Positions 24,342 through 57,226 of a stretch of 64,000 nt of DNA are shown here, piece after piece (positions within the stretch are counted from its first letter, which is position 1; each line of letters opens with the position of its first letter). This DNA is from Candidatus Acidiferrales bacterium (GTDB lineage: Bacteria; Acidobacteriota; Terriglobia; Acidiferrales; UBA7541). The notes under the pieces were generated by a model, which was not told the origin of the DNA, ran no database searches, and saw only the letters and a program-made list of their open reading frames with translations. The DNA lies in contig JANWJR010000046.1 of the NCBI GenBank assembly GCA_025451835.1, positions 5,173 through 69,172 on the forward strand. Direction: 5' to 3'. A program made the position numbers and the translations under genes.

Positions 24342-24342
24342 C

Positions 24343-28199: not shown

Positions 28200-28234
28200 G
28201 CGTCAGGACCTGGGTTTTATGGCCGCCGCTTTGC

Positions 28235-29677: not shown

Positions 29678-29759
29678 GACATCCTCCAGGAACTTTTCCG
29701 CTTATCTGGCCAAACCCCAAATTTTTGGTGCGACATCGATAAATCAATGGGAACGTCGT

Positions 29760-30287
29760 TCATATCACCGGCACGGCAAACACTTCGGTTAAACGCCGCA
29801 GGTCAACCAAAAGCGCTAGGCGATCTTCATGGCGTAACATGCCGCGGCAATGCGGCACATCGTGCGGCGCCTGATCGAGCAGCGCGTCCTCTGTCGCCGA
29901 ATACGTCCCGATCACTTCATCCGTCGCGATGCCCACGCGCAGATCGTCACGATTTGCGTCACCTAAAATGGCGGCGACCACCACGTGTTTAGGCAACAAG
30001 CCCGGGCGACGTCCCTCCGTAAATGCGATGTCGATCAGAGGCACGATCGTTCCCCGCAGATTGAAGACTCCCATCAGGAATGCCGGAGCCAGTGGAACCC
30101 GCGTTACTAAAGGCCAGTCCACCACTTCTTCGACTTCCAGCACCGAGAGGCAAAACCGCTCCCGCCCTGCGCGAAAAACGCAGTACTGGCGCTCCGGAAG
30201 CCGCTCCTCGGAGGACGGGTCGCCTTCGAGAAATGCCCCATCGTCGAGCTCGCCGGGCAGTTGCGAGTTTTCCTGTTCCTTAGCCAT
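29760..30287 (-). CDS. cheW: CheW coupling protein
   Basis: 175 aa. Contains FCLSVLEVEEV ... LMGVFNLRGTIVPLID. TAATG junction with cheY. Confidence 0.85.
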   Translation of the reverse strand: MAKEQENSQLPGELDDGAFLEGDPSSEERLPERQYCVFRAGRERFCLSVLEVEEVVDWPLVTRVPLAPAFLMGVFNLRGTIVPLIDIAFTEGRRPGLLPKHVVVAAILGDANRDDLRVGIATDEVIGTYSATEDALLDQAPHDVPHCRGMLRHEDRLALLVDLRRLTEVFAVPVI

Positions 30288-30655
30288 TATGCGAACCTTT
30301 TCACCGCTCCGATAAGTTCCTCGGGTGTAAAAGGCTTGGCAACGAATCCGTTTGCGCCTTGCTGCTCGCCCCAGTACCGGTCGCTCGGCGCCGTCTTCGA
30401 TGTGACCAGGATCACGGGAATCTGGGAATAATTAGCCTGGTTCTTCAGATCGCGGCACACTTGAAAGCCGTTCCTGGCTGGCATCACGACGTCCAGCAGA
30501 ATCAGATTCGGACGTTCTTCCTCGATCGCTTCTTCGACTTTGGTCGGATCGGAAATTCCAACCGAATGAAATCCGCCTTGCTGCAAGAATGATTGGATAA
30601 GATGAACCTCGGCGGGCGAGTCATCGACGATCAATATTTTCTTCACCACAGCCAT
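30287..30655 (-). CDS. cheY: CheY-like single-domain response regulator
   Basis: KILIVDDS, LILLDVVMPARNG, VTSK, AKPF. The start is ATG 30655 or one of the GTG codons just downstream. The track start at 30697 is upstream of the putative promoter. Confidence 0.85.
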   Translation of the reverse strand: MAVVKKILIVDDSPAEVHLIQSFLQQGGFHSVGISDPTKVEEAIEEERPNLILLDVVMPARNGFQVCRDLKNQANYSQIPVILVTSKTAPSDRYWGEQQGANGFVAKPFTPEELIGAVKRFA

Positions 30656-30684
30656 GCCTCCACACTGATATCCGGTGAGAGAAA

Positions 30685-30700
30685 TGCAAGTCCGCAACCA
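30685..30700 (-). promoter_or_regulatory. candidate sigma54 (-24/-12) promoter in front of cheY-cheW-mcp...
   Basis: The minus strand reads TGGTTG-CGGAC-TTGCA. GG and GC have the exact consensus spacing (TGGCAC-N5-TTGCW) and the -12 box is perfect. It lies 30 nt upstream of ATG 30655 in an 87-nt intergenic gap. Confidence 0.4.
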
Positions 30701-30782
30701 CCAGCGCAGCTCTTTCGCGCTGTGCGATCACTTTCTAAACTTCCGTGTTTTGTTTGTCTTACGTGCCCCGCGCTAATCGTTG

Positions 30783-31481
30783 CTAGCCAGCATCAACCCG
30801 CAGAGACACTACTTCCGTCTCAGCTTGAGAATCTTTCTCACCAGCACGCATTTCCGCCGCCAGCGATGAGAATCGTTGCATGATTTCGTTGAGCCGCAGC
30901 GCCATCGTGTGAATCGTCTCGATTTGGTCGCGGCTTTCCGCAGACATGTAGCCGGGCTCAAGCAAAAGCAAGTCGGCGTTTCCGAGCACCGAGGTAAGCG
31001 CGTTATTCACGCTCGGCCGCATTTCAAGCATGTATTTGCCAAGCGTGGCTTGGCCTTGGCTTTCCAGAGCAAGCTTCTCAGCGCGCTGAGCGCGACCGGC
31101 CGCTTCTGTCCGTCGAAGTGCTTCACTGGAAATGAGGATCAAGGTCCCCGCCCAACCATCGTGACGGGGCACGACAAGTACGTATGGATGTTCGGCCCGA
31201 AACAGTGCAACGTCCGTTTGATCCTCGGCAACGTAGATGACCACAGAAGATGAAGAAATCCTCAAGAACGCGAGAATCGTAGCGGGACTGCCCGTGCGGA
31301 CAGGCCCCAGAATGACGATCTGATATCCGGCAGCGCTGCCTGCATGGCAAACGCCGCTGGCAATCAGTGTGATTTCGGGTACGTGGCGCTCCGTCTGCCA
31401 GCGGGCGACAACGGAACGCGAAAATTCCGTGTCGTCCGATACAATCAGGACGCTGGATTGGTTCAAGTGAGACGACCTCAT
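30783..31481 (-). CDS. pseudo-receiver + His-less DHp-like coiled-coil protein (no ATPase domain)
   Basis: 232 aa. REC-like strand pattern (VLIVSDD, QIVILGP, VVIYVAE, VLVVPR) without an acceptor Asp. A HisKA-like helix LEMRPSVNNALTSVLGNADLLLLEP has Leu at the phospho-His position. Confidence 0.5.
   Translation of the reverse strand: MRSSHLNQSSVLIVSDDTEFSRSVVARWQTERHVPEITLIASGVCHAGSAAGYQIVILGPVRTGSPATILAFLRISSSSVVIYVAEDQTDVALFRAEHPYVLVVPRHDGWAGTLILISSEALRRTEAAGRAQRAEKLALESQGQATLGKYMLEMRPSVNNALTSVLGNADLLLLEPGYMSAESRDQIETIHTMALRLNEIMQRFSSLAAEMRAGEKDSQAETEVVSLRVDAG
30816..30822 (-). promoter_or_regulatory. TGAGACG heptamer, candidate activator-binding element
   Basis: The plus strand reads CGTCTCA. 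The element is about 120 nt upstream of the 30700 -24 element. It pairs with AGAGAC on the other strand at 30802-30807 (GAGAC/GTCTC inverted, 9-nt spacer). Confidence 0.3.
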
Positions 31482-31490
31482 CCCATTGCC

Positions 31491-33068
31491 TTAGGGTTGG
31501 AGCTTTTCTGCTTCCTCGATAACGGAAAGCAGACGCTTGGTGCTGATTCCGAGATTTACAGCAGCTTCCGTGTTTTTCGCGCGCTTTGCCGTTTCGACGC
31601 GCCCTTGGAAATAGGAAACTTCGCCGCGAGCAAGCGCTAAGGCAGACCCCAACCGAGTCAGGTCTCCCGAGCGCTTTCGCACATCCATGGCAACAGCAAG
31701 GAGAGCACGGGCCACGACGGCGCGGCGCAAATCTTCCGCCTCCTGATCTCCTTCCGTCACAAAGGCAGCCACTTCCCACGATGAGAGCAGCACTTTCGTA
31801 TCTTGCAGCACGACCGTGGACATCGAACGTCCTCGGGATGGCGGCGCGGCTATCAATTGCTCCCAAATCGAATCCAGACACTTTTCTGCATCGATTGGCG
31901 GAGCAGCGGAAGTCGCGTCAGTTCCGGGTTTCGCGGCCTTGATTGCTCCAGCAGAAGGTGCTTCGTTCGGAACAGGGGCTGCCTGATCTGCATGCATCTC
32001 TTCCGGCTTTGCGGCCGCAAGTAATGGCGGCAAATCGTCCGAACGAACATTCGCGGATGCGGAAACCTGATCGCCCCGAGTTTCTTCATTTTCATGAGCT
32101 TCTATCGCAAAAAACTGCTGCGTAGCCGCGGAATGAACGCGCACCAGCGCCTCTTCGAGATCGGCCCGCAATGCAAAGAGCTGGTCGAAAGCACGGGTAA
32201 CCGAATTTTCGGTGTAGTCCTTATGAAAAGGCTGACGCCAGTTCTCGCAATAATACCGGAGTTGCGTAGTTGTCTCTGCCGCGGAGAACCCGGCGCGCCG
32301 GCAGTCCACTGTTTTTACACCGCTCGCATCCAGGTGCTCGACGGCCGCCTTCATCGCGTTCAAATCCGCATGAAGCATGCGGATGAAAGCTCGCCGGAGC
32401 CGAAAGTTAAAGCGGCAGAAAGCAACGAGAGCGGCCGGATCGTAAAACATCTGACCCGCCGAATCCTTCAACAGACGCCCCTGTTCAAGGACACCATGCT
32501 CCATCATGTCGCGAAGGCTCTGGCAGTTTTCGAGCGTGTTGAGGATTTCATCGAGTGGCGCGCACCACTCGACGGGCGTGGAATCCGCTGCGCCAAGCAC
32601 CGGCTGGAGAACTCGCGCGACATCCGCCAGGCTGAACTCGCTGCGATAAAGCTCCTCGGGAGCGCACAAAGCGAAGTACTGGACCAGTAGCAGGTCGATC
32701 TTGTCCCGATCGGCTGAAGCTTTCTCCGGCTTCTTCAACTGACGCTGCAGAAACGCGCGAAGGCTGGCTTCGCTTGCATTCAGGATCTCGGGAGGAAGCT
32801 GCCGAATCTGAAAGGCACGGACCTTTTCGTCGATCGTATTGAGCCATTCCAAATCGCGATCGAATATCTCACGCGTCGGGCGTGCCGGCGGCAGCTCCCC
32901 GGCAGCGTAAAGCAACGCTACCAAATCGAATTGTGCGGCAAGCGCCGCATAGAGTGGGTACGCAAGGCGCGCCTCGTTCCACATGGTAGCCGGGTCGACA
33001 GTAACACTCGATTTTGATTTGTTCGTGCCGGCCAGAGAATTTATCGGAATCGGAGTTTTTATCGTCAT
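31491..33068 (-). CDS. hypothetical protein, 525 aa, no recognisable domain
   Basis: Long ORF with ordinary coding composition and no TM segments. Central Ala/Pro/Asp-rich low-complexity stretch. ATG 33068 forms an ATGA overlap with the upstream small ORF. Confidence 0.6.
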   Translation of the reverse strand: MTIKTPIPINSLAGTNKSKSSVTVDPATMWNEARLAYPLYAALAAQFDLVALLYAAGELPPARPTREIFDRDLEWLNTIDEKVRAFQIRQLPPEILNASEASLRAFLQRQLKKPEKASADRDKIDLLLVQYFALCAPEELYRSEFSLADVARVLQPVLGAADSTPVEWCAPLDEILNTLENCQSLRDMMEHGVLEQGRLLKDSAGQMFYDPAALVAFCRFNFRLRRAFIRMLHADLNAMKAAVEHLDASGVKTVDCRRAGFSAAETTTQLRYYCENWRQPFHKDYTENSVTRAFDQLFALRADLEEALVRVHSAATQQFFAIEAHENEETRGDQVSASANVRSDDLPPLLAAAKPEEMHADQAAPVPNEAPSAGAIKAAKPGTDATSAAPPIDAEKCLDSIWEQLIAAPPSRGRSMSTVVLQDTKVLLSSWEVAAFVTEGDQEAEDLRRAVVARALLAVAMDVRKRSGDLTRLGSALALARGEVSYFQGRVETAKRAKNTEAAVNLGISTKRLLSVIEEAEKLQP

Positions 33069-33436
33069 GGTTTGATAATCCAATTGCCCACTTCGCTCAC
33101 AAAGCGAGCTGCCACAGCTTTCCGGCCATCGTGATATCTCACGGCGACCACCGTCGCATTCGCATCGAGCGACCCATCGGAATTCACTAGCCGCAACCGG
33201 TCTTCGAATTCGAGCGGCAACACAGAAGGAAACAGCACCTCCTGCGCCGTGCCAAACTCGATCACCGTCTGCTCCTGCAATCGCCTACTGGAACCCAGCG
33301 CCACGACGCGCACCGGAATGTGAATTGCCGATACGTTCAAGAAAAGCTGAGCGAGTTTTTCAACGCAGCTTTGCCCGAGAGAAATAGTTGCTGTTTCCAA
33401 TTCGCGTGGCACAGAGGCCCCCGTCCGCCACCTCAT
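33065..33436 (-). CDS. small hypothetical protein, possibly a degenerate PilZ-like beta-barrel
   Basis: ATG 33436 is preferred: the track start at 33529 is a TTG upstream of the putative promoter. The stop is coupled (ATGA) to the next gene. The beta-rich segment IPVRVVALGSS...LRLVNSDGSLDANATVVAV lacks a canonical RxxxR. Confidence 0.4.
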   Translation of the reverse strand: MRWRTGASVPRELETATISLGQSCVEKLAQLFLNVSAIHIPVRVVALGSSRRLQEQTVIEFGTAQEVLFPSVLPLEFEDRLRLVNSDGSLDANATVVAVRYHDGRKAVAARFVSEVGNWIIKP

Positions 33437-33512
33437 CAAACCCGCCAGCCGTGTGTTGGCGGCAAGGACAGAACGACGTAGATGGGCACGGCGTTTCTTC
33501 GAGCAGAGAGAT

Positions 33513-33528
33513 TGCACGAGCAAGGCCA
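33513..33528 (-). promoter_or_regulatory. candidate sigma54 (-24/-12) promoter in front of the orphan trio
   Basis: The minus strand reads TGGCCT-TGCTC-GTGCA, the same pattern as the 37776 site (TGGCAT-GGCCC-GTGCA). An overlapping alternative register CGGCTT-N5-TTGCT lies at 33519-33534. Confidence 0.4.
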
Positions 33529-33609
33529 AAGCCGTGCGCGCGGCTAGGTTGGCAACCGCTTGAAATCAAATGGATTACGCAGAGGCCGATGAGGGCTTAC
33601 GGCGGTGGC

Positions 33610-33637
33610 GTCTCAGCCTGATACGAATTCGTCTCAC
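33610..33637 (-). promoter_or_regulatory. two TGAGACG heptamers 21 nt apart, one inside a near-palindrome GAGACGAATTCGTATC
   Basis: The plus strand reads CGTCTCA at 33610-33616 and 33631-33637. ACGAATTCGT (33624-33633) is a perfect 10-nt palindrome. The elements are 88-109 nt upstream of the 33528 -24 element. Confidence 0.35.
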
Positions 33638-33684
33638 GTCCCCGAGAGGCGGGGCAATCGCTGCGGCGAACCTGGCAGCCGAAA

Positions 33685-33708
33685 TAGCGTCGTCTCAAAG
33701 ACGAGCTA
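33685..33708 (-). terminator. hairpin overlapping the EBP stop codon; weak intrinsic terminator or palindromic protein-binding site
   Basis: The RNA would read UAGCUCGUCU-UUG-AGACGA(C)GCUA followed by UUUCGG: 10 bp with one bulge and only 3 U. It also contains a third TGAGACG copy (33691-33697 on the plus strand as CGTCTCA). Confidence 0.3.
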
Positions 33709-35112
33709 CGGGAGGACTTTGACTTCCAAAGTTTCTGCGTGCGGCGACTGCGCGGGAATCTGGTAGCGCTTCAGCTTTCGATAGAGTGTGGCGCGGCTGA
33801 TACCGAGCATTTTCCCTGCGAGGGCTTTGTCCCCGCCCGCTTGCTCGAAAACGCGCAGGATCGTCATGCGTTCGAGATCCGCAAGGGCTGTTGTGGATAG
33901 CTCAGCCGTTTCAGCAGCTACCGGGCCGTCGTCTGGAGTTGCACGGACATTGGGAGGGAGATCGCCCAGATCAATAACACGGTGGTCGCCCAGAGCGACT
34001 GCCCGCGCGATGCAATTTTCGAGCTCCCGGACGTTTCCCGGCCAATCGTATTGGAGAAAGCTCTTCATGGTCGCCGGGGTGACTTGAATGTTCTCTCCCG
34101 GCGCGTAGCGGTCCAGAAAACAATGAACGAGCTGCGGAATATCGGAGCGCCGCTCGCGCAACCCCGGAAGGTGCACTGTTACAACGTTCAGCCGGAAATA
34201 CAGGTCCTTGCGGAAGGTGCCAGCGCGATACGCGGCCTCGAGGTCGCGATTCGTGGCGGCGATAACGCGGACGTCCACAGGGATTTTTTGATTGCTGCCA
34301 ACGGGCCGCACTTCTTTTTCCTGCAGGACCCGCAGTAGCTTCGCCTGCATCTCGAGCGGCAGTTCGCCGATTTCGTCAAGAAAGATGGTTCCGCCATTCG
34401 CGGCGTAAAAGAGTCCAGCTTTTGATTTGAGCGCGCCGGTGAACGAGCCTTTTTCGTGGCCGAACAGCTCGCTTTCCATCAGCGTAGGGACCAGAGCGCC
34501 ACAATCGACTGCGATGAACGGCATCTGTGCCAGCGGCCCGCGGAAGTGAATCGCCCGGGCCACTAGCTCTTTTCCCGTCCCGCTCTCGCCACTAATGAGC
34601 ACCGGCGTGCGCGTTTCCTTCAGGCGCGAGACCATCCGCATCACATCTTGAACTTTGGCGGACGTGCCTGCGATTCCATCGAGTTGCGCATCCGTCTCGA
34701 TGCGCTCGCGCAGAAACTGATTTTCCGTCACCAGCCGGACTTTCTCGGCCATGCGCTGCAGGAGTTGCCGCAATTTCTCGACGCGGAACGGCTTTTCAAT
34801 GTAATCGTAAGCGCCCTGACGCATCGCATCGACGGCAGATTCGATCGAGCCGTGTCCCGTCATTATCGCAATTTCCGTGCGCGGGAGATTCTCTTTCACC
34901 TTTCGGAGCAAGTCCGTGCCGGAAAGGCTGGGTAACTTCAGGTCCGTCACCACCAGATCCGGTGGAGACGTTTCCAACATCTCCAGCGCCGTTTCCGCGT
35001 TTTCGGCCTCCGCGCACACATACCCAAGGCCCTGCCCGACAGTCATGCAAAGCCGGCGGATGCTTTGCTCGTCGTCCACAATTAGAAAGCGCAGGTGTAT
35101 TTCGTCCCTCAT
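33706..35112 (-). CDS. sigma54-dependent NtrC-family response regulator (REC-AAA+-Fis HTH)
   Basis: [43 protein letters not shown], and C-terminal [16 protein letters not shown] 35112 overlaps the upstream stop as ATGA. Confidence 0.9.
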
Positions 35113-35516
35113 GGCTGGCCAATCGTTTTTTCGACCGCGCTCAGGAGTTGTTGAACGCGGAAGGGCTTTTCGACGCACGGCGTGCCTGCCTGCGCGAGCA
35201 GCGCGATCGTCTCATCGCTGGCCGTGTCGCCCGTGATGAAGACGATTCGCGAGGCCAGTTCCGGGCGATGCCGGCGAATCCAGTCATGCACATCCGTTCC
35301 GGTGATTCCTCCTGGTGTTCGGAAATCTGAAATCACGCCGTTGAACTTCTCAGCGGCAAGCAATCGCAGCCCTTCGGCCGCCGAGCATGACGGAACCACT
35401 TCGTAACCACGCCGCTCGAGAGCAATTCGCAGAAACGCCGCCACCGATGCCTCATCCTCAATCACCAGAATGCGGCTGCGGCCGGCGGCAGCTACCGTGT
35501 CGCGCCCGCCCCTCAT
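35109..35516 (-). CDS. single-domain response regulator (canonical REC)
   Basis: ILVIEDE, VISDFRTPGG, FITGD, EKPF. ATG 35516 overlaps the kinase stop as ATGA. Confidence 0.8.
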   Translation of the reverse strand: MRGGRDTVAAAGRSRILVIEDEASVAAFLRIALERRGYEVVPSCSAAEGLRLLAAEKFNGVISDFRTPGGITGTDVHDWIRRHRPELASRIVFITGDTASDETIALLAQAGTPCVEKPFRVQQLLSAVEKTIGQP

Positions 35517-37501
35517 TGCGCCATCTCGGCTGAGAGAGATTGCATCGCGTCGTTCGCTGCGGGCAGGCGAACCAGGAACGTGCAGCCAGGTCCATTGGAA
35601 TTGTTCTGGGCAAGAATTTCGCCGTGATGCGCCTGCACGATTCCGTAGCAAATGCTCAGGCCGAGCCCGGTGCCTTTTCCCACTTCTTTTGTGGTGAAAA
35701 AAGGATCGAAGATACGATCGGGCTGCGCAATGCCGGGACCGTTGTCGCGGAAAAGAATTTCAAGATGGCCCCCACGCCGCAACGTCTCGATTTCGATTTT
35801 TCCGGATCGCCGCGTTTCATGCACGGCGTCGTACGCATTATTCAGTATGTTCAAGAACACCTGCTGCAATTGATGCGGATCGCCGACGGCAAGCGGCAGG
35901 TCCTCATCGTACCGCTCCACCACCTCCACGCCGTGATTCGAAAAATCGTAAGCGCGCAACTTCATCGTCTGCCGCAGAACAGAATTCACTTGCAAGGGCT
36001 CGCGCTGCGCCGGCATCTGGCGTGCAAAGCTTAGAAGATTTTGGACGATCACGCGAGTGCGCTGCGCTTCTTGCAAAATCACGCGCAGTTCCTCCTTGGC
36101 CTCTTCCGGTATCCCAGGATTCTCCAGAAGCAAATCCGTGAAGCCGACAATCGCGGCCAGCGGATTGTTCACTTCGTGCGCCACGCCGGACACGAGTTGG
36201 CCCAGCGCCGCCATTTTTTCAGTATGCATAAGCTTCGCCTGCAGGTCGGCGGCATCCGTAATATCCGTCATCACCACAACGATGCTGTTGATATCTCCCT
36301 GCTCGTCTTTCATCGGGCTGAGGCTGATGGAGAACTGCCCGGCCGTGCCATTCGCGCGCAGCAAAGGAATTTCGATATTGCCGCCCGCAGTTCCGTCCAG
36401 CGTTCGGCGCAGTGCTTCAGCGAGCAGCGGCCGTCTGGCGACCGGGACTCGTTCGACCAGTGGACGCCCTAACAGATCCTGTTCCTTATATCCCGCTTCG
36501 AAGCAGCGGCGATTCGCATAGCTGACGAGCCCCGCCGTGTCCAGCACGAGAATCATGCTTTCGGTGTTGTTCAGAATGTTCTTGTTAAAGTCGCGTTCGC
36601 GACGGTACCGCCGCTCGGCCTCGCGGCGGTCCGTAATGTCCTTCAGAACGTGGATCGTTCGCAATTCGTCATCGAGCCCGTTGTGGATGCGCGCGGAAGA
36701 AACCAAATAGAGTTTTTCGGCGGCTTCGTGAACAAATTCTTCACGGCCGGCTTTCACATCGCGACAGAACGGACAGCGGGCCGATTGTGCTGGCGTCCCA
36801 AGGATGCCGAGTTTGCCGATGTCCCGGCCCACGGCCTCGGGGGGCCGCACCGCAAGGAGTTCGGCGAGTGAGTGATTTAGACGCAGGACTCGATTGGCTG
36901 CGTCATGAACGACGATGTAGTCCGAAATAGCATCGAAGTCTTCCACCCATTGTTTTCGTGATTGCTCGATCCGCGAGAATAGCCGGACGTTCTCGAGCGC
37001 GACGGAAGCGTGGCTCACGAGAGCCTCAAGTAACTGTGCCTCGGCATCCGGCAGTTCGCGTGTCAGATCCACAAGGCATAGGACACCCAGCAAAGCGCCA
37101 TCGCTCCCTATCAATCTCGCTAGAACCAGGGCGTGCCATCCGAGAGCTTCGGCCAGTTCGATTCCCAGAGCTTTGGCGGCTGATACCGGCCGCAAGTCCA
37201 CTCCCGGAATCGCACAGAGTTGTCCCAGCAGGCCCGCCAGCCTGCGTTGCACTGAGGTATCCCAATGCTGCGCAGGACCGCTCAAAGCCCCCATATCCCA
37301 GTCGGCGCCGCGCGTCAGCACTAGCACCGAAGCACGTGCGCCCAGGATTTCGGCGGCTCGCATCGTCAACCTGCGCGCAAACTCCTGCGTGCCAACGGAT
37401 GGGTTCAGCTCAAGTGTTGTCGCGGAGAATTGCCCTAGCAGCGTCTCAAATGACCCATCGAGGCGCGAGGGTGCTTCCCGGGTTCGTTTTAGCGCACGCA
37501 T
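35513..37501 (-). CDS. cytoplasmic sensor histidine kinase (GAF-PAS-PAS-HisKA-HATPase)
   Basis: 662 aa, no TM segments. H-box HEVNNPLAAIVGFTDLL, N-box LNILNNAYDA, G-boxes RDNGPGI and GTGLGLSI. Confidence 0.9.
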   Translation of the reverse strand: MRALKRTREAPSRLDGSFETLLGQFSATTLELNPSVGTQEFARRLTMRAAEILGARASVLVLTRGADWDMGALSGPAQHWDTSVQRRLAGLLGQLCAIPGVDLRPVSAAKALGIELAEALGWHALVLARLIGSDGALLGVLCLVDLTRELPDAEAQLLEALVSHASVALENVRLFSRIEQSRKQWVEDFDAISDYIVVHDAANRVLRLNHSLAELLAVRPPEAVGRDIGKLGILGTPAQSARCPFCRDVKAGREEFVHEAAEKLYLVSSARIHNGLDDELRTIHVLKDITDRREAERRYRRERDFNKNILNNTESMILVLDTAGLVSYANRRCFEAGYKEQDLLGRPLVERVPVARRPLLAEALRRTLDGTAGGNIEIPLLRANGTAGQFSISLSPMKDEQGDINSIVVVMTDITDAADLQAKLMHTEKMAALGQLVSGVAHEVNNPLAAIVGFTDLLLENPGIPEEAKEELRVILQEAQRTRVIVQNLLSFARQMPAQREPLQVNSVLRQTMKLRAYDFSNHGVEVVERYDEDLPLAVGDPHQLQQVFLNILNNAYDAVHETRRSGKIEIETLRRGGHLEILFRDNGPGIAQPDRIFDPFFTTKEVGKGTGLGLSICYGIVQAHHGEILAQNNSNGPGCTFLVRLPAANDAMQSLSAEMAQ

Positions 37502-37620
37502 AGATCGGGGTCTACCTTAAAGGGCGGTCAGAAAAAGAGGTTACGGCTCAATCTCAATTTGAGTCAAGCAGCTGGGCATCCCCTGTTGCCCTAACGGGCA
37601 AGTAGAGACAGGTCGCAACA

Positions 37621-37658
37621 TGAGACTCCGAAGGGTAAGCTGGGGGGTAATTGAGACG
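37621..37658 (+). promoter_or_regulatory. TGAGACT / TGAGACG repeat pair 31 nt apart, candidate activator-binding elements
   Basis: TGAGACT at 37621-37627 and TGAGACG at 37652-37658; a related AGAGAC lies at 37604-37609. They are 124-155 nt upstream of the 37776 -24 element. The 9-mer TGAGACGAA is shared with the 33629-33637 site. Confidence 0.35.
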
Positions 37659-37775
37659 AAACAACCAGGCACATCGCGCTGAGCCCCATCTATCGACTTC
37701 CAATATCCACAATAGAATCAGCATCTTGTAGCAAGAAATCAGAAATCCTTCCTCATTCTTGATAATCCGTATCCA

Positions 37776-37791
37776 TGGCATGGCCCGTGCA
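37776..37791 (+). promoter_or_regulatory. candidate sigma54 (-24/-12) promoter of the second che operon
   Basis: TGGCAT-GGCCC-GTGCA against the consensus TGGCAC-N5-TTGCW, with exact spacing. It lies 48 nt upstream of ATG 37839, whose GGAGGGG RBS is at 37827-37833. Confidence 0.45.
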
Positions 37792-37838
37792 ATTTGTACT
37801 GCAGGAGAGTTTGTCCTCATTCAATGGAGGGGTATGTA

Positions 37839-38189
37839 ATGAAACGGAGACTGCGAGTGCTGGGATTGGGGCTTTCGTTACTGCTTGGGGCAACGGCGGT
37901 CGCGCCTCCCAAGCTGGCGGCTCAGGATGACTCCTTGGCATCCGCGAAGCGGAAGGTGCGAACCCGCGTAACGCCGGATTATCCCTTGCTGGCAAAACAA
38001 ATGAACGTCGCCGGCAAGGTCAAGATTGAAACTACAATTTCGGCGGACGGCCATGTGACGAACACGAAAGTAGTGGGCGGCAGCCCGCTGCTTGTAAACG
38101 CTGCCATGGAAGCTGTGAAGAAATGGCGGTTTGAGCCGGCGGCGAAAGAGTCCACCGAAATCGTCGAATTCGACTTTGGCGGCAATTAG
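37839..38189 (+). CDS. secreted TonB C-terminal domain protein
   Basis: 116 aa. Signal peptide MKRRLRVLGLGLSLLLGATAVA. TonB_C pattern (PDYPLLAKQMNVAGKVKIETTISADGHV...AVKKWRFEP). No TM anchor or Pro-rich spacer. Confidence 0.7.
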   Translation: MKRRLRVLGLGLSLLLGATAVAPPKLAAQDDSLASAKRKVRTRVTPDYPLLAKQMNVAGKVKIETTISADGHVTNTKVVGGSPLLVNAAMEAVKKWRFEPAAKESTEIVEFDFGGN

Positions 38190-38244
38190 AACTTCTTGAA
38201 TGCGCTGGGGCGTTCCTGCGGGGCAAGGAGTGGAGGCGTTGCAC

Positions 38245-40245
38245 ATGACAATTGGCAAGAAATTATATTTCGGGTTTGGCGCCATCCTGGTGGCGATGCT
38301 GATTCTGTTCATCATCAACATTTTCACCGTGACGCGCGAATACAACGCACGCTCGGCCGCCGCGGCGACTCTGTCCGACGTTCAGTCGATCGAAGACATT
38401 CGCTTCGAGATGATGGAGAACCGACTGAACTTGGGCAACTATCTTCTTAGCGGCGATCTGCGCGATGAGGACAAGACCAACCATGGCATCAACCATCTGC
38501 TCGATCTTGTAAAGCAGGAGGAGACCAAGGCTAGTGATCCAACTCTGCGATCTTCACTTTCGCAAGTGGAGGAGAACGAGCGAAGCTGGTCGGACAATTT
38601 TGCGAAACAGATGATCGCCAAGCGTCATCAGGTGGATGCGGGCGACATTACCGTGTCGGACCTGCAGATTTTTTATTTGCAGCACGATCCCGCCTCCTGG
38701 ACCACGAAATCCTCCGGCGTGCTTGACGACGCAAATCAATCCGTACGCAAGGCTTTGGATGATTCCAATGCGTCGGCGGCGGCCGCAACGCGGTGGAGCA
38801 CAATCATCACGACTCTCGGCACCTTCCTCGCCATGGTTTTCGGCTGGTTCATAGCGTTCCGCACGGCCAAGTCCATCAAGGATCCGATCTATCACCTAAT
38901 TGATGTCGCGCACCGCATCGGGGAGACCGGCGATCTCGATCAATCCATCGATATCCACCGCGATGATGAGGTCGGCATTCTCGCGGCAAATTTCAACAAG
39001 ATGATCACGCACCTGAAAGATATGGCCGGAGTCTCGGCTGCAATCGCTGAAGGCCAGTTGCAGGTCACGATCCAGCCCCGCTCGGCGCAGGACACAATGG
39101 CGCGCGCGTTCGCACGAATGACGCAGGGGCTTCGCGACATCGTGCGCCAGGTTCGAGATAGCGCGTCGCAGGTGGCAAGCGGCGCAGGCCAAATGGCCAG
39201 CGCTTCGGATGAATCGGCAAAGGTTAGCGTGCAAGCAGCCTCCGCCATCGATGAAGTTACGAGCACGATGCATGAAATGAGCATCAACGTGCAGAACGTG
39301 GTGAAGAACACTCAGGTGCAGGCTTCCAGCGTCGCGGAAACTTCGGCGTCCATCGATCAGATGGTGACATCGATTCAGCGCGTCGCGGACACAGCGAAAC
39401 TTCTCGTCGATATCTCTCATCGCTCGCGCGAAGAAGTGCAAACCGGCATGGGAACGATGGAGAAAGCCACCGAGGGCCTGAATCGCACCAGCACCGCGAT
39501 TCAATCATCCGCGGAAATTATCGATGTGCTGGGGCGGCGTGCCGACGACATTGGCAAGATTATCGAAGTGATCGATGATCTTGCCGAACAGACCAATCTG
39601 TTAGCCCTCAACGCAGCCATAGAAGCGGCTCGGGCGGGCGAGCATGGACTTGGGTTTGCCGTGGTCGCCGAGGAAGTTCGCAAGCTGGCGGAAAAGTCCA
39701 CGCAATCCACAAAGGAAATTTCGGAACTGATCCAGGGCATTCAAAAGGAAGCCCGCGAAGCCGTCGAGAACATGGACAAGAGCACCAGCATGGTCCAGGA
39801 AGGGCTGGTGCTCAATAAGGATCTCAGCTTCGCGCTTGAGAAAATCTCGAACGTGGTTGCGGAGGTCTATAAATTTTCCCAGGAGATCGGCGCGGCTACC
39901 ATGGAACAATCCAGCGGCTCGTCGCAAATCGCCAAAGCAACCAACCGTCTTACGGAAATCACGCAAGAGATCAACTCATCGGTCGAAGAGCAGGCTTCCG
40001 GCGCGCAGGCCGTGGTTCGCGCAATGGAAAAGATGCGCGAACTTGTCCAGCAATCTACTTCCAGCTCGACGGAGCTCGCGGCAGCCGCCGAGCAGATGTC
40101 GAAGCTTTCGCGGGCGCTGCTTGAATCGATGGACCGGTTTATTCTCGATGATGGTCACGCAGATTCGAGACGCTATCCAAGCAAGCGAACGTTCGGAAAC
40201 GAACGTCCGGCTCCAGTTGAATACGCTGAGGTTGCCCGCTCGTGA
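38245..40245 (+). CDS. methyl-accepting chemotaxis protein (periplasmic helical sensor, HAMP)
   Basis: TM1 (FGAILVAMLILFIINIF), a periplasmic region of about 170 aa, TM2, HAMP, and the signalling tip [36 protein letters not shown]. Confidence 0.9.
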   Translation: MTIGKKLYFGFGAILVAMLILFIINIFTVTREYNARSAAAATLSDVQSIEDIRFEMMENRLNLGNYLLSGDLRDEDKTNHGINHLLDLVKQEETKASDPTLRSSLSQVEENERSWSDNFAKQMIAKRHQVDAGDITVSDLQIFYLQHDPASWTTKSSGVLDDANQSVRKALDDSNASAAAATRWSTIITTLGTFLAMVFGWFIAFRTAKSIKDPIYHLIDVAHRIGETGDLDQSIDIHRDDEVGILAANFNKMITHLKDMAGVSAAIAEGQLQVTIQPRSAQDTMARAFARMTQGLRDIVRQVRDSASQVASGAGQMASASDESAKVSVQAASAIDEVTSTMHEMSINVQNVVKNTQVQASSVAETSASIDQMVTSIQRVADTAKLLVDISHRSREEVQTGMGTMEKATEGLNRTSTAIQSSAEIIDVLGRRADDIGKIIEVIDDLAEQTNLLALNAAIEAARAGEHGLGFAVVAEEVRKLAEKSTQSTKEISELIQGIQKEAREAVENMDKSTSMVQEGLVLNKDLSFALEKISNVVAEVYKFSQEIGAATMEQSSGSSQIAKATNRLTEITQEINSSVEEQASGAQAVVRAMEKMRELVQQSTSSSTELAAAAEQMSKLSRALLESMDRFILDDGHADSRRYPSKRTFGNERPAPVEYAEVARS

Positions 40246-40760
40246 GGACGCCAATGCCACTCATGGATAAGGACATCCAGATCGTCGGGTTTCGAATCGG
40301 ACGTGAAACCTTCGGACTCCCCATTTCCCTAGTTCGGGAGATCGTTCGCGTTCCGGAGATTACGTCCGTTCCAAATGCCCCCGATTACATCGAAGGCGTA
40401 ATCAACCTTCGCGGGCGCATCATTCCGGTAGTCGATCTACGCAAGCGTTTCGGCGAAATGATCGAGGCAAGCACGAAGAACCGGATCGTGGTGGTGGAGA
40501 TGGAAAGCCGCTTCATCGGCTTGATGGTGAATTCTGCTTCAGAAGTGCTCCGCCTGCCGCCTTCGGAAATCGAAGCGCCGCACAGTGTCTTTCAGGACGG
40601 TGAACTGAACTTCATTACCGGAGTCGGAAAGTTAAAGGGCCGCCTTGTGATTCTGCTGGATTTGAACCGAGTTCTTCAGCGTGGCGAACTGCGTAGCCTC
40701 GACGACTTGGCCGAGTCCGCAGCGATGGTTCCTGCTGGCGGCGTGGCGCGAAATCGTTAG
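40242..40760 (+). CDS. cheW: CheW coupling protein
   Basis: Contains FGLPISLVREI ... IEGVINLRGRIIPVVDL. GTG 40242 forms a GTGA overlap; an alternative ATG lies at 40254. Confidence 0.85.
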   Translation: MRTPMPLMDKDIQIVGFRIGRETFGLPISLVREIVRVPEITSVPNAPDYIEGVINLRGRIIPVVDLRKRFGEMIEASTKNRIVVVEMESRFIGLMVNSASEVLRLPPSEIEAPHSVFQDGELNFITGVGKLKGRLVILLDLNRVLQRGELRSLDDLAESAAMVPAGGVARNR

Positions 40761-40793
40761 AAGAAATCCGAGAACGCACATGACGGGGGACGA

Positions 40794-41702
40794 ATGTCCA
40801 CACTGATGACGCAGGTCCCGCTCACGGAGCCTGAGCTGAAATTGTTGCAGACGCTCGTATACCAGGAATGCGGGATGTATTTCGATGAACGCCGCACGCA
40901 TTTTCTCCGCGACCGGCTGCAGCGGCGGTTGAAAGCATGCCAGATGGATTCTTTCTACAGCTATTACCGCCTGCTTACCAGCCGAGAGGGAAAGCAGGAA
41001 CTGGTGGCGCTTCTCGAAAATCTCACGGTGAACGAGACGAGCTTTTTCCGGATCCGGCCGCAGCTCGAGCTATTTCAAAAATTTGTGCTCGAAGATCTAC
41101 TGAAGCGGAAACAGGAGCGCCGCGATTGGACGCTGCGCATCTGGAGCGCGGGCTGCTCCACGGGGCAGGAGCCGTACACCCTCGCGATCCTGATATGCGA
41201 TGCGCTTGCCTACTACTACTTGCGCAACCCCCTGCCTTTCGAAATGCCCACGCCGAAGCCGCTGATACCGCCGCCATGGAAAGTGGAGATCCTCGCATCG
41301 GACATCAACTATTCGGCTCTGCTAACGGCGCAGCAAGGCGTCTACACCGAATCGCAGATGGAAACCGTGGATTACACCTGCCGGCTCCGCTACTTCGATA
41401 AAGTGGGCGACAAGTACGCCGTTAAGGCCACCCTGAAGAGCCTGGTGCAGTTCGACTTCCACAACCTCAAGACAGAATACCTACCGCAGCGCAACGACGC
41501 CATCTTCTGCCGCAACGTCATGATCTATTTCGATGAAGCCGAGCAAAAACGCCTGGTCGGAAAGTTCCATAACTGTCTCAATTCGGACGGCTATCTATTT
41601 GTCGGCCACGCCGAAAGCCTTTTCGGATTGACGACCAAGTACCACATGGTCCATCAGAACAACGCGACCGTGTACCAGAAACTCGATGGAGCGCAGCAGT
41701 GA
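40794..41702 (+). CDS. cheR: chemotaxis protein methyltransferase CheR
   Basis: 302 aa. Contains IWSAGCSTGQEPYTLA and IFCRNVMIYF. Confidence 0.9.
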   Translation: MSTLMTQVPLTEPELKLLQTLVYQECGMYFDERRTHFLRDRLQRRLKACQMDSFYSYYRLLTSREGKQELVALLENLTVNETSFFRIRPQLELFQKFVLEDLLKRKQERRDWTLRIWSAGCSTGQEPYTLAILICDALAYYYLRNPLPFEMPTPKPLIPPPWKVEILASDINYSALLTAQQGVYTESQMETVDYTCRLRYFDKVGDKYAVKATLKSLVQFDFHNLKTEYLPQRNDAIFCRNVMIYFDEAEQKRLVGKFHNCLNSDGYLFVGHAESLFGLTTKYHMVHQNNATVYQKLDGAQQ

Positions 41703-43789
41703 CTTTTTTCCCTGACGATCGGGCCTCGGAACTCCGCGACCTTTTCTTTGAGAGTTCGGCGGAAATTGTTCAGGCCATGAATGAAGCGGGGCTTGTGCTC
41801 GAAGAGCATCCCGGCGATGAAGAAAGCCTGCGCCGCGTGCGGCGCGCCGTGCACACGCTCAAAGGCGATTCCGCGGCCTGCGGTTTCCGTGAACTCAGTG
41901 AGCTGGCGCACGACCTGGAAGACGTTCTCACCCCGGAATCAGCCAGGGAGAATTCGGGACTCGTCCCTGAAGTTGTGCTGGCAGCCGCCGACACGTTCCA
42001 TGAAATGCTCACAGCCTACTGCAGTAAGTTGCAACCGCCGGCCGGCGGCGCGTTGCGTGAGCACATCCAGCGCCTGCTTCACAAGCCAGGCCCTCTAGGG
42101 CACAAAACCTCGCGAGAGGCCAAGTTCGAATGGACTGAATACGAACGCCTGATAATCGCCGAGGCGTTTCAGTGCGGCGAAGTGGTCTATCACGTCGCCC
42201 TGCATCTGGACCCTGAATCGCTGCTGCCAGCCGCCGCGTTTGCGCTGGTTCGCAAAGCTCTTGAAGGCGCCGGAAAAATCCTGGCTCTGCACCCCGAGAG
42301 CGGTGCGACGCTGGATCAGGCTGGCCTGATTGAAACGGCGCTTTCGAGCGAAAAATCGGCGGACTGGATTCGGCAGCGCTGTCGCGTACCGTTGGTAGTT
42401 ACAAATATTTCTGTCGACAAAGTCCCCCAGCCGTCATCCGCTCCGCGCGATCTTCTCGAGATACTTCTCGAATCCGAAGCCGCCGCAGTGGCCGCCGGAA
42501 TCGGGAAAAGTACCACGGATGCCGCAACCCCGCACGGGAACGACAAATCTGGCGCAAACGGGACCGCTAATCTTGCACACGCCGCTGAAAACACGCTGCG
42601 CGTGGACGCTGGCCGCATCGACACCGTCATGAATTTGGTGGGCGAACTGATAATCGGAAAATCCATGCTTCATCGCACCATCGCGGAGTTCGAGCGGCGC
42701 TTCGCAAAGGATCCTCTGCGCGGCAAGTTTTCCGACGCGTTGGCGTTTCAATCGCGCGTGCTTGGCGAATTGCAAAAGTCCGTGATGAAGATCCGCATGG
42801 TGCCGGTCGAGCAGCTCTTCCGGCGCTTCCCGCGGATTGTGCGCGATGTCGCCAGGCAGCGCAATAAGGACGTCGTTCTCGAGATCGCAGGCCAGAACAC
42901 GGACCTCGACAAGAGCATCCTTGACGCTCTCGCCGAACCTCTGGCGCATCTGGTGCGTAACGCCGCGGATCACGGAATCGAATCTGCCGAAGAGCGGCAG
43001 AAACTCGGCAAGCCGGCGCGTGGCACGATTCGACTGGATGCGTACCATGAAGGCGATCAAGTGGTAATCGAAATTTCGGACGATGGTCGCGGTCTTGATC
43101 GCGAAAAGATCGTGCGCCGCGCTATCGAGCGCGGGATACTTACCAGCGAAGAAGCGACCCGTTTGAATGAGTCCGAAGCTCTTCATTTGATTTTCACGCC
43201 AGGCCTTAGCACCGCTGACGAAGTGACTGAGATATCAGGGCGCGGCGTAGGGTTGGATGTAGTTCACTCCGCGGTCGAAAGCCTCAAGGGCAGCATCGAT
43301 CTCGATAGCGAGCCGAGTAAAGGCGCCACGTTCCGACTGCTGGTTCCGCTGACGCTGGCCAGCATCCAGGCTCTCCTCTTTCATGCGGCCGGCAGACTCT
43401 ATGCCGTCCCACTTGGCTCGGTCGTCGAGATCACTCGGATTCACGAGAACGAGATTCACCGCGTCAGCGATCACGAGGTGTTTCAGTTGCGCAAGCAGGT
43501 CTTGACCCTAATTCGCCTCGACCGACTGGGATTCAAAGAAACGCGCGAAAAGTCGAAGCGCGTCTTCGTGGTGGTGATCGGCGCGGGAAACCGGCAATTC
43601 GGACTGGCAGTCGACAGCCTAATGGGCGAGGAAGAACTGGTGATCAAAGCTCTTGAGGATGAGCTAATCACTTCGCCACTGGTAAGCGGCGCTTCGATTC
43701 TGGGAGATGGCACCGTCGTTCTGATTTTGAACGTGCCCGCTGTCGTCTCACACCTTGCGCGGATTCCCGCTGTGGGGGCCATTGCATGA
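41699..43789 (+). CDS. cheA: chemotaxis histidine kinase CheA (single Hpt, no REC)
   Basis: Hpt AVHTLKGDSAACGF, HLVRNAADHGIE, DDGRGLD, GRGVGLDVV, and a P5 CheW-like domain. GTGA overlap with cheR. Confidence 0.9.
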   Translation: MTFFPDDRASELRDLFFESSAEIVQAMNEAGLVLEEHPGDEESLRRVRRAVHTLKGDSAACGFRELSELAHDLEDVLTPESARENSGLVPEVVLAAADTFHEMLTAYCSKLQPPAGGALREHIQRLLHKPGPLGHKTSREAKFEWTEYERLIIAEAFQCGEVVYHVALHLDPESLLPAAAFALVRKALEGAGKILALHPESGATLDQAGLIETALSSEKSADWIRQRCRVPLVVTNISVDKVPQPSSAPRDLLEILLESEAAAVAAGIGKSTTDAATPHGNDKSGANGTANLAHAAENTLRVDAGRIDTVMNLVGELIIGKSMLHRTIAEFERRFAKDPLRGKFSDALAFQSRVLGELQKSVMKIRMVPVEQLFRRFPRIVRDVARQRNKDVVLEIAGQNTDLDKSILDALAEPLAHLVRNAADHGIESAEERQKLGKPARGTIRLDAYHEGDQVVIEISDDGRGLDREKIVRRAIERGILTSEEATRLNESEALHLIFTPGLSTADEVTEISGRGVGLDVVHSAVESLKGSIDLDSEPSKGATFRLLVPLTLASIQALLFHAAGRLYAVPLGSVVEITRIHENEIHRVSDHEVFQLRKQVLTLIRLDRLGFKETREKSKRVFVVVIGAGNRQFGLAVDSLMGEEELVIKALEDELITSPLVSGASILGDGTVVLILNVPAVVSHLARIPAVGAIA

Positions 43790-44919
43790 GCGAAAAGCTT
43801 CGCGTCCTTGTAGTGGATGATTCGGCGCTTATGCGAAAGCTGATTCCGCAGGTTTTGCAGCGTGATCCGTCCATCGAGGTCGTTGGCACGGCAATGGATG
43901 GTTCCATAGGCTTAAAAAAGATTGAAGAATTGCGGCCGCACGTCGTGACGCTGGATCTGGATATGCCGCGGATGGATGGAATCGAGATGCTGCGCCAGAT
44001 CACGAGAAAACATCACGTGCCCGTGATTGTGTTCAGCGCGCTTTCCGAGCGCGGAGCTTCAGTCACCCTAAAAGCGCTCGCGCTAGGAGCCTTCGACTTC
44101 GTGACCAAGCCACAGGATGCTGCCTCGGGTAGGCTCGAGCACATCGCTGCGGAGCTCGCCATCAAGATCAAAGTCGCGGCTGCCTCCGGCGCACCAAAAA
44201 TGATCATCACGGTTCCGGCACCGAGGATAAAGCCGAATCGCAGGCCCGGTCTACCGCATACGCCCTCGCGGATCGTGGCCATCGGCGTGTCCACAGGCGG
44301 TCCTAATGCACTTCAGTATGTGTTTTCGCAACTTCCTGATGACTTTGCCGGGTGCCTGCTTGTCGTCCAACACATGCCAGAAGGATTCACGGAAATGTTC
44401 GCGCGGCGTCTGCATGAGTCTTCGGCCATAGAGGTAAAGGAAGCGCAGTCCGGCGATTTACTCCTCGCCGGTCGCGCGCTCATCTGCCCCGGTAACCGCC
44501 ACATGAAAGTGCGCCGGCTCGCGCACGGGGACATAGCAGTGCTGGTGGATCAGCCGCGCGTCAACGGACACCGGCCCTCGGTGGATGTGCTCTTTCAATC
44601 CGTAGCTCAGGAATTCGGTGATCGCGCGATCGCAGTACTGATGACCGGCATGGGCGACGATGGGGCCGAAGGCCTCGGCGCGGTGCAAGCTGCCGGGGGC
44701 TTCACGCTCGCGCAAAGCGCGGATAGTTGCGTGGTGGATAGCATGCCGCGCGCGGCTGTCGAGCGCGGTTTCGCCAGTCGAGTGGTTTCGCTTTCAGGCA
44801 TTGCAAGTGTTCTACAGGCTAAGTGCATCCCGGAAAAGTCACAAACCGAACCGGCAGAGATCGCGCAATCCGAAGGAGCAATTCCGGGTGATCGGTTTTC
44901 TCGAAGGAGAGGATCATGA
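43786..44919 (+). CDS. cheB: protein-glutamate methylesterase CheB
   Basis: LRVLVVDDSALM, VVTLDLDMP, VAIGVSTGGP, LVVQHMP, GMGDDGAEG. Confidence 0.9.
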   Translation: MSEKLRVLVVDDSALMRKLIPQVLQRDPSIEVVGTAMDGSIGLKKIEELRPHVVTLDLDMPRMDGIEMLRQITRKHHVPVIVFSALSERGASVTLKALALGAFDFVTKPQDAASGRLEHIAAELAIKIKVAAASGAPKMIITVPAPRIKPNRRPGLPHTPSRIVAIGVSTGGPNALQYVFSQLPDDFAGCLLVVQHMPEGFTEMFARRLHESSAIEVKEAQSGDLLLAGRALICPGNRHMKVRRLAHGDIAVLVDQPRVNGHRPSVDVLFQSVAQEFGDRAIAVLMTGMGDDGAEGLGAVQAAGGFTLAQSADSCVVDSMPRAAVERGFASRVVSLSGIASVLQAKCIPEKSQTEPAEIAQSEGAIPGDRFSRRRGS

Positions 44920-45365
44920 AACAGTTTGAACCATTGACGCGAAAAAAGGACAGTCAGCCTGTTCGCTACCTCGTGGTGGACGATTCAGTGTTCGCGCGGA
45001 AGAGTCTGGCAAAAATGATCGAGTCGTTCGGCGGTCACGTGGTCGGCGAAGCGGGCGATGGTTGCACGGCCATCACGGAGTATACCCGCGTGAACCCCGA
45101 CCTCGTGCTGATGGATATTACGATGCCGCAGATGGAAGGAATTGAAGCGGTAGAGCGCATCGTCCATGAGCACCCGGACGCTCGCATCGTAATGGTCTCC
45201 TCCGTCGGCTATCAGGACAACATCCTCGCCGCGCTGCAGAAGGGCGCCCGGCATTTCGTCCAGAAGCCCGTAAAGCCGGATGCTCTCTACGAAATCATTC
45301 GCTACGTGCTCAACGACGACGGTGTGACGGCAACTGTCGGCGCCGCACAGGAGACCTCGCGATGA
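44916..45365 (+). CDS. cheY: CheY response regulator
   Basis: YLVVDDS, LVLMDITMPQMEG, VSSVG, QKPV. Confidence 0.85.
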   Translation: MKQFEPLTRKKDSQPVRYLVVDDSVFARKSLAKMIESFGGHVVGEAGDGCTAITEYTRVNPDLVLMDITMPQMEGIEAVERIVHEHPDARIVMVSSVGYQDNILAALQKGARHFVQKPVKPDALYEIIRYVLNDDGVTATVGAAQETSR

Positions 45366-45859: not shown

Positions 45860-45916
45860 AATTACCGCGTTTATCTCGGGATGGCGCCGTCCGCAATGGA
45901 CACAAAGCCGGATCAG

Positions 45917-56078: not shown

Positions 56079-56147
56079 AGAGCAGTTGTCTGAATTTTCC
56101 GCGCCGCGGACCTGCGGCGCATGAATCGCAATCAAGAAGGAGCGGAC

Positions 56148-57143: not shown

Positions 57144-57226
57144 TTAATTCTGAAGTCGCTCGATTTTCGCACTGGGCGGGGGCATGATGTGCGACACGTG
57201 TCCATGCTTCGCAGAGAATTTCGTTG

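Follow-up and report, generated by a model that had tools for sequence, protein, structure and literature searches.

A 17-bp inverted repeat was found upstream of three sigma-54-type promoters in a 64,000-nt stretch of the genome of a Candidatus Acidiferrales bacterium (GenBank assembly GCA_025451835.1, contig JANWJR010000046.1, positions 5,173 to 69,172 of the forward strand; hereafter the window, with positions counted from its first letter). One half of the repeat, the heptamer TGAGACG, had been noticed in an earlier note made from the sequence of the window alone. With a probability of roughly 0.8, and judging from sequence comparison, we conclude that the TGAGACG copies are half-sites of an upstream activator sequence (a bacterial enhancer) for the NtrC-family activator encoded at 33706–35178 on the reverse strand, which would thereby drive three sigma-54 operons. 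The three upstream regions and their operons are named A, B and C. Each region held a palindrome and one or two accessory half-sites. The accessory half-sites lay 17–21 or 31 bp from the promoter-proximal half of the palindrome, and the sites lay 88–160 nt upstream of the -24/-12 promoter. No description of this box was found in the literature. Acidobacteria are among the most abundant bacteria in soil, and since few of them have been cultured, their gene regulation is almost undescribed.

Heptamer copies in the window

Five exact copies of TGAGACG were located upstream of the three promoters. Region A contained one at 37652–37658 (+), 125 nt from the -24 GG. Region B contained three on the reverse strand, at 33691–33697, 33630–33636 and 33609–33615 (170, 109 and 88 nt from the -24 GG, respectively), and region C one at 30816–30822 (-), at a distance of 123 nt. 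The earlier note had listed the same five copies; its coordinates were correct for those starting at 37652, 33691 and 30816, while the other two (33631–33637 and 33610–33616) were each one base too high. Its distance range to the -24 elements, 88–169 nt, agreed with the 88–170 nt measured here. Also where it had placed them were the variants TGAGACT (37621–37627) and AGAGAC (37604–37609) and the copy TTGAGACGAAT at 19577–19587, and the 9-mer TGAGACGAA was indeed common to the 37652 site (+) and the 33630 site (-). It had not listed a copy at 37442–37448, on the opposite strand and within the start of the kinase gene described below, which is not conserved in relatives.

Conservation in related genomes

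A scan with the activator protein, keeping one genome per species, yielded 80 loci, namely 73 orthologs (64–85% identity) and 7 paralogs. The ortholog loci had the same gene order and were mostly labelled Acidobacteriota (Ca. Acidiferrales/Acidoferrum, Terriglobia). The paralog loci came from other phyla and were without synteny.

Across the ortholog loci, the distances from the heptamers to the -24 GG were fixed: 125–127 and 156–158 nt in region A, 88–91 and 108–111 nt in region B, and 123–125 and 141–142 nt in region C. The sequence at these positions was TGAGACG or TGAGACA. The earlier note had proposed to look for enrichment of the heptamer upstream of GG-N10-GC sites. Counted on both strands of the 73 orthologous loci, its density in the three upstream regions was 4.02 per kb, compared with 0.102 per kb elsewhere (1.4 Mb), which is a 39.5-fold enrichment with a positional bias. 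The paralog loci contained 0.075 heptamers per kb and no match to the matrix of the box. Motif discovery on the orthologous intergenic regions, likewise suggested in that note, ranked TGAGACG first among the 7-mers of each of the three regions when the window was excluded (44 of 55 loci for A, 37 of 46 for B and 19 of 29 for C). The flanks of the half-sites carried 0.07–0.15 bits per column, compared with 1.5–1.7 bits in the half-sites, and the flanking DNA could not be aligned between clades.

The three sigma-54-type promoters named in the earlier note were conserved as well. For promoter A (TGGCATGGCCCGTGCA, 37776–37791, +), with GG at -24 and GC at -12, a GG-N10-GC element occupied this position in 56 of 59 loci (consensus TGGCAnnggccTTGCa). 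The -24/-12 elements of promoter B (TGGCCTTGCTCGTGCA, 33513–33528, -) recurred in 47 of 53 loci (consensus TTTGGCngnnntCgTGCA), and those of promoter C (TGGTTGCGGACTTGCA, 30685–30700, -) in 30 of 34 (consensus TGGCTgcngActTGCAaTT). Enrichment, fixed positions and conserved promoters thus support the reading of the heptamers as sites of an enhancer-binding protein, and we infer that the protein which binds them is the neighbouring activator.

Shape of the box

When all copies were aligned on the heptamer, the flank profile revealed GTC(T/G)CA as another signal, separated from it by exactly 3 nt on the upstream side. The unit is therefore a 17-bp inverted repeat, yGTCTCA-N3-TGAGACr (matrix consensus nGTCTCAnnnTGAGACn). 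Flank profile and matrix both displayed a dyad symmetry of the kind suited to dimeric helix-turn-helix proteins, and the 7-N3-7 geometry would fit a dimer of Fis-type helix-turn-helix domains. In the window, the promoter-proximal half was perfect in regions B and C (TGAGACG) and read TGAGACt in region A; the distal half was degenerate in all three. The rule that the heptamer always points along the promoter strand is apparent, because the promoter-proximal half is the better kept one; in other clades, according to counts on the reverse strand, it is often the distal half that is perfect. The earlier note was thus right that TGAGACG recurs upstream of the promoters, but the true unit is the 17-bp palindrome with its accessory half-sites and not an oriented heptamer. 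Similarly, the 9-mer is present in two regions as claimed, but its extension beyond the heptamer reflects a weak preference for A at the following position.

In regions B and C, and in region A of some loci, a further forward half-site lay just upstream of the palindrome, resulting in an array of half-sites of alternating orientation (forward, reverse, forward). The spacing from the first (H1) to the third half-site (H3) was 21 bp in region B, 18 bp in region C and 17 bp in region A. Next to the one full palindrome, the conserved accessory copies were lone or degenerate half-sites, and second full palindromes occurred in some clades only. The segment TGAGACGAATTCGTATCA (33619–33636) was considered as an alternative palindromic unit and rejected, as the stacked orthologs pair GTATCA with the downstream TGAGACG over a 3-nt spacer.

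A matrix of the box was trained without the window; at a threshold of 14 bits, 0.33 matches per window were expected by chance. The top three matches in the window, with 15.5–22.2 bits, were the palindromes of regions A, B and C. The TGAGACG copies starting at 7133, 19578, 31468, 35208, 37442, 43744, 50864 and 55004 were classified as background, being without a partner half-site and absent at a cut-off of 9 bits. The sequence CGTCTCACGATGAAAGT at 63808–63824 scored 13.8 bits and was also taken as background, because it lies inside an aminotransferase-like open reading frame (ORF) that runs off the end of the window. In a scan for clusters of k-mers, direct repeats present three times in about 90 nt were observed elsewhere in the window, CGCGAAATGG at 56934–57024 (ORF 56121–57143) and CGCGTTC at 57382–57469 (ORF 57224–58657).

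Sites and operons of the three regions

In region A, the main palindrome GGTCGCA-ACA-TGAGACT (37611–37627, +; 15.5 bits) lies upstream of the -24 GG at a conserved distance of about 157 nt, and its right half is the TGAGACT of the earlier note. The AGAGAC of that note belongs to the degenerate distal half-site H1, AGAGACA (37604–37610, +); in some relatives (loci L006, L008, L051 and L069), TGAGACT or TGAGATT stands here, immediately in front of the palindrome. The lone half-site TGAGACG at 37652–37658 lies downstream of the palindrome, 31 bp or about three helical turns from its right half. It is kept 125–127 nt upstream of the -24 GG in close clades and has no conserved partner half. Based on Pfam matches, operon A (37839–44919, +) encodes a TonB_C-domain protein, a methyl-accepting chemotaxis protein (MCP), CheW, CheR, CheA and CheB, and is followed by a gene for CheX (45362–45859, +). 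A PilZ-domain gene on the reverse strand is convergent with the CheX gene (45362–46783 together), which is a second link to PilZ at this locus, after the che cluster of operon A.

Region B has the main palindrome CGTATCA-GGC-TGAGACG (33609–33625, -; 22.2 bits), the right half of which is conserved 88–91 nt upstream of the -24 GG. Its distal half-site H1 (TGAGACG, 33630–33636, -), 21 bp upstream of H3, is conserved 108–111 nt upstream of the -24 GG. The lone half-site at 33691–33697 (-) lies 9 nt past the stop codon of the activator gene. The position of this copy is not conserved; many relatives have an extra half-site 143–191 nt upstream of the -24 element, in either orientation. An a(t/c)cacTTAg-like element (approximately 33545–33565, -), which precedes the -24 element of promoter B by about 35 nt, was conserved in relatives; it is a poor match to the consensus of integration host factor (IHF).

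Operon B (30783–33436, -), supported by synteny, consists of three genes, T1 (33065–33436), T2 (31491–33083) and T3 (30783–31481). None of the three products had a Pfam, NCBIfam or significant PDB-sequence profile match. T1 has 675 homologs, and the best 120 of these 675 were unnamed or labelled hypothetical. Its AlphaFold model (predicted local distance difference test, pLDDT, 80.6) matched PilZ domains almost exclusively, namely those of Alg44, MotI/DgrA, VCA0042, YcgR and BcsA (E approximately 2e-3, template modeling (TM) score approximately 0.5). Nearly invariant in T1 are two motifs for cyclic di-GMP (c-di-GMP), R39xxxR43 and D87-G-S-L-D-A92; the latter corresponds to DxSxxG with G replaced by A, i.e. 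a DxSxxA version. From the predicted fold and these motifs, T1 is probably a c-di-GMP receptor. T2 was assigned to no family in the searches. T3 looks like a receiver-like N-terminal domain followed by a degenerate pair of helices resembling HisKA or DHp (dimerization/histidine phosphotransfer) domains, without an ATPase domain. The H-box histidine found in many T3 orthologs (MRHS..NN) is a proline in the window (MRPSVNN). With a PilZ-like T1 and a receiver-like and DHp-like T3, the most constant target of the switch would thus be a small signalling operon, and the che clusters would be further targets.

Relatives of the Terriglobia clade carry a conserved hairpin in the leader between promoter B and T1, with the loop CUAACCGG (e.g. 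GGCTCCCCaagCTCTTCCtaaccGGGAAGAGGGGAGCC). It is found in loci L029, L034, L038, L041 and L046 (at about 12000–12300), L047 (15400–15650), L048 (10300–10490), L051 (17000–17260) and L073 (13250–13480). The window is without the hairpin, and no Rfam match was obtained.

In region C, the main palindrome ATTCTCA-AGC-TGAGACG (30816–30832, -; 20.3 bits) is situated in the final codons of T3 (DSQAETE). Its degenerate distal half-site H1, TGAGAAA (30834–30840, -), is also inside the T3 coding sequence and reads TGAGACG in several relatives, 141–142 nt upstream of the -24 GG. According to Pfam, operon C (20686–30655, -) encodes CheY, CheW, an MCP, CheR, a CheA-receiver hybrid, CheB, a second CheW, a receiver-DUF4388 protein and a receiver-domain protein. 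As ordinary and unrelated context, genes for purine degradation are present at 483–6976 (-), encoding an allantoicase/OHCU decarboxylase fusion, an amidohydrolase, and xanthine dehydrogenase-type FAD and molybdopterin subunits.

The activator, the kinase and their predicted promoter

Between operons A and B lies a kinase-receiver-activator operon on the reverse strand. Its first gene encodes a sensor histidine kinase with GAF, PAS, HisKA and HATPase domains (35513–37501, -; Pfam); the gene is divergent from operon A, and its position is conserved in orthologous loci. It is followed by a stand-alone receiver-domain protein (35109–35510, -; Pfam and synteny), the start of which is uncertain since its ORF, as listed, shares some sequence with the end of the kinase gene. 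The activator (33706–35178, -) has the Pfam domain make-up REC-AAA+-HTH_8, with E-values of 2.5e-69 for Sigma54_activat and 1.1e-11 for HTH_8. It has the Walker A motif GESGTGKE, a GSFTGA loop, one change from the canonical GAFTGA, and a helix-turn-helix near the C-terminus. No other gene annotated around the three regions encodes a recognisable DNA-binding domain. The activator scored below every NCBIfam equivalog cut-off, for example 420.3 against 558.6 bits for NtrC (TIGR01818) and 433.8 against 714 bits for AtoC (NF008469), and is therefore not NtrC, AtoC or another named regulator.

A sigma-70-like promoter of the kinase operon is predicted at 37538–37567 (-), with the -35 element TTGACT (37562–37567), an 18-nt spacer and the -10-like hexamer TAACCT (37538–37543). 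In 69 of 81 sequences, the arrangement TTGACTCA-N3-TGAGA, with TAnnnT 18 nt after TTGACT, occurred exactly once per locus and always on the strand of the kinase gene. A stricter sigma-70 scan of 37380–37860 called no promoter in the window, so the assignment comes from conservation. The -35 element and the spacer contain the palindrome AATCTCAATTTGAGTCA (37550–37566), which has the 7-N3-7 layout and a TCTCA/TGAG core like the main box and is, tentatively, a possible autoregulatory operator. An initial score of 20 bits for this palindrome was discarded as circular, the first matrix having been trained on that palindrome and the window; after retraining the score was about 9 bits. One clade (L013, L016–L018, L020–L024, L042 and L064) carries an extra conserved half-site, aatTTGAGACGC, about 30–35 nt downstream of the -10-like hexamer of the kinase operon. 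This clade-specific half-site falls in what is presumed to be the 5' leader of that operon.

Natural variation and metagenomic matches

Differences among loci served as natural experiments. Of 33 loci in which a cheY cluster follows T3, 31 had the box inside T3, compared with 2 of the 24 loci without such a cluster (Fisher test, 2e-11, with no phylogenetic correction). Where the downstream cheY cluster was absent, the tail of T3 was QQAENE-like and the box was gone. In nearly all loci with the region C site, the serine codon was TCT, and in most of them the glutamate codon was GAG. In five loci, T1 was 0.9–5.4 kb away from the activator gene; there, the box was found in front of the T1 promoter and not past the activator stop codon.

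Metagenome contigs were searched with the pattern of the box alone (TGAGAC-N4-7-GTNTCA-N3-TGAGAC), which retrieved at least 120 stretches. The activator or T1 adjoined the box in 88 of the 120 matches listed, and a TGG..GC element followed the box in 83 of these 88 loci. The distances from the box to the -24 element in these loci fell into classes of 78–81, 88–91, 100–103 and 112–114 nt. These steps of about one helical turn fit a face-of-helix requirement. The other 32 of the 120 matches listed provided no convincing new member of the regulon. A search of sequencing runs for the organism returned soil metagenome DNA only and no RNA runs.

Alternative explanations

Several observations weigh against an enhancer bound by the activator at 33706–35178. 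Several conserved sites consist of a lone half, an unusual arrangement for a helix-turn-helix protein that acts as a dimer, and the score of the kinase-promoter palindrome was only about 9 bits once both it and the window had been left out of the training of the matrix. No rpoN gene was found among the window ORFs annotated. An IHF site between box and promoter, which many though not all promoters of this kind have, was rejected as unsupported, as the exact consensus WATCAANNNNTTR was rare across loci (4 of 56 for region A, 4 of 47 for B and 0 of 30 for C). The ortholog loci are phylogenetically related, so that their counts are not independent events and the Fisher test given above overstates independence. 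Finally, TGAGACG occurred 14 times in the whole window compared with 10.5 expected copies, i.e. without global enrichment. This last count also speaks for a recurrence that was picked out post hoc and is due to chance or composition, as do the heptamers with three same-strand copies in 100 nt, of which the window had 12, compared with 3.8 per window in Markov simulations; the same-strand TGAGACG triple is by itself weak evidence. With no window-wide enrichment and a triple that is not rare, the case must therefore rest on position and on other genomes. The statistics within the window alone are only suggestive, and conservation in other genomes raises the observation far above chance: the same heptamer recurs at the same distances between unrelated flanks in independent genomes, ranks first with the window excluded and is enriched 39.5-fold. 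Chance is thereby left with next to no probability. Read on the other strand, GAGACG is CGTCTC, a type IIS restriction site. A reading of the copies as restriction sites was rejected, given that the hexamer, with 41 copies in the window, shows no sign of avoidance and that restriction would leave the positions unexplained.

If the boxes are real protein sites, they could belong to a different transcription factor encoded elsewhere, either another sigma-54 activator or a repressor that co-regulates the operons. The lone half-sites and the odd layout of three half-sites, which differ from the textbook dimer pattern of NtrC-type proteins, would agree with such a factor, as would the weak match of the kinase-promoter palindrome to the box. 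We nevertheless regard it as quite unlikely, since the box co-occurs with activator orthologs in about 70 genomes and in the 88 of 120 listed metagenome matches, is absent from the paralog loci, and lies at the distance usual for an enhancer from promoters of the sigma-54 type, which require an activator; at this locus, no DNA-binding protein other than the neighbouring activator was recognised. For region C, it could be argued that the copy is conserved merely as code for the C-terminal T3 peptide SQAETE, as the site is inside the coding sequence and its upstream flank is conserved as protein (1.30 bits per column). The nearly fixed TCT and the usual GAG are, however, what a DNA box requires, and the box is lost together with the SQAETE tail where no cheY cluster follows, which makes coding constraint a very improbable explanation. 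Even less credit is due to nucleic acid structures (RNA hairpins, terminators or cruciforms) or remnants of small repeats. The boxes are inverted repeats, and the sites of region B are just past the activator gene, a plausible place for a terminator. Yet the stem would be 7 bp with a loop of 3 nt and no T-run, the half sequences are conserved rather than covarying with degenerate halves left uncompensated, and lone half-sites are conserved too. The boxes also precede promoters A and C, where such an RNA would be unexpected, and no Rfam family was detected in 30000–38500 or in five related loci. As for a repeat element, the copies share a core of 7–17 nt only, with flanks of about 0.1 bit per column and no element body, and the three best matrix matches in 64 kb all fall in the three regions.

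Proposed mechanism and implications

Taking the boxes as the enhancer of the activator, we propose the following model. The GAF-PAS kinase would phosphorylate the receiver domain of the activator. Activator dimers on the palindrome, aided by the accessory half-sites, would nucleate the AAA+ ring, which would reach the sigma-54 polymerase via DNA looping. Regulation would thus be positive, with promoters A (TonB_C-MCP-CheW-CheR-CheA-CheB), B (T1–T3) and C (CheY-CheW-MCP-CheR-CheA-CheB and the following genes) being opened. The box-like palindrome in the sigma-70-like promoter may in addition autoregulate the kinase-receiver-activator operon.

A more far-reaching version is speculative and, in our view, unlikely to hold. 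It takes the odd number of alternating half-sites, about one turn apart and with a near-invariant proximal half, as a polar template that orients the assembly of the AAA+ ring, and not as two symmetric dimer sites. It further supposes that one kinase joins a c-di-GMP-type PilZ module (T1–T3) and two chemosensory arrays in an undescribed lifestyle circuit of soil Acidobacteria. Were this true, the kinase and the activator might also receive feedback from T3, with its receiver-like and DHp-like parts, or from the che pathways.

The analysis provides a defined operator sequence, three conserved sigma-54 promoters, and a predicted regulon of two chemosensory clusters and a PilZ-like operon, linked to one kinase-activator pair. 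The predicted circuit is open to direct test in vitro or in a heterologous host, and the matrix of the box can be used across available genomes to map the full regulon. Region C also illustrates that a regulatory box can occupy the last codons of a gene and dictate codon choice.

Comparison with known systems

NtrC (NRI) of enteric bacteria acts at an enhancer at glnAp2 and at operators at glnAp1 and glnLp, with the site TGCACCA-N3-TGGTGCA. The activator described here resembles NtrC in its REC-AAA+-HTH_8 make-up, in the 7-N3-7 dyad, and in sites about 100–140 nt upstream of a GG-N10-GC promoter and about 2–3 helical turns apart. As at glnAp1 and glnLp, an operator may overlap a predicted sigma-70-like promoter of the regulator's own operon. 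It differs from NtrC in the sequence of the box (GTCTCA-N3-TGAGAC), in having chemosensory and PilZ-like targets instead of nitrogen genes, and in combining one full palindrome with lone half-sites, whereas NtrC has two full palindromes. AtoC was the best full-length NCBIfam match of the activator (433.8 bits), and AtoS that of the kinase. With scores far below the cut-offs and an unrelated gene context, however, the activator is a member of the same family as AtoC, ZraR and other named NtrC-family regulators and not an ortholog of them.

The nearest example of an NtrC-like two-component pair linked to a chemosensory cluster is CrdS–CrdA/Che3 of Myxococcus xanthus; to our knowledge, no CrdA box is known. 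There, too, an NtrC-like regulator and its kinase are functionally connected to a chemosensory cluster with a role in gene regulation and not in motility alone, and the Che3 pathway modulates the phosphorylation of CrdA, so that information runs from Che to the activator (PMC3147164). In contrast, the evidence presented here concerns an activator driving transcription of che clusters, and the two systems are compared by function and not by orthology. In the FleQ, FlrA–FlrC and FlgR hierarchies, sigma-54 and an AAA+ activator turn on chemotaxis genes. The use of sigma-54 and an AAA+ activator for che genes is shared with the system described here, but the gene annotation around the three regions included no flagellar genes. 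Unlike in those hierarchies, a dedicated GAF-PAS kinase and its activator are encoded between two che clusters, and their most constant target is the T1–T3 operon.

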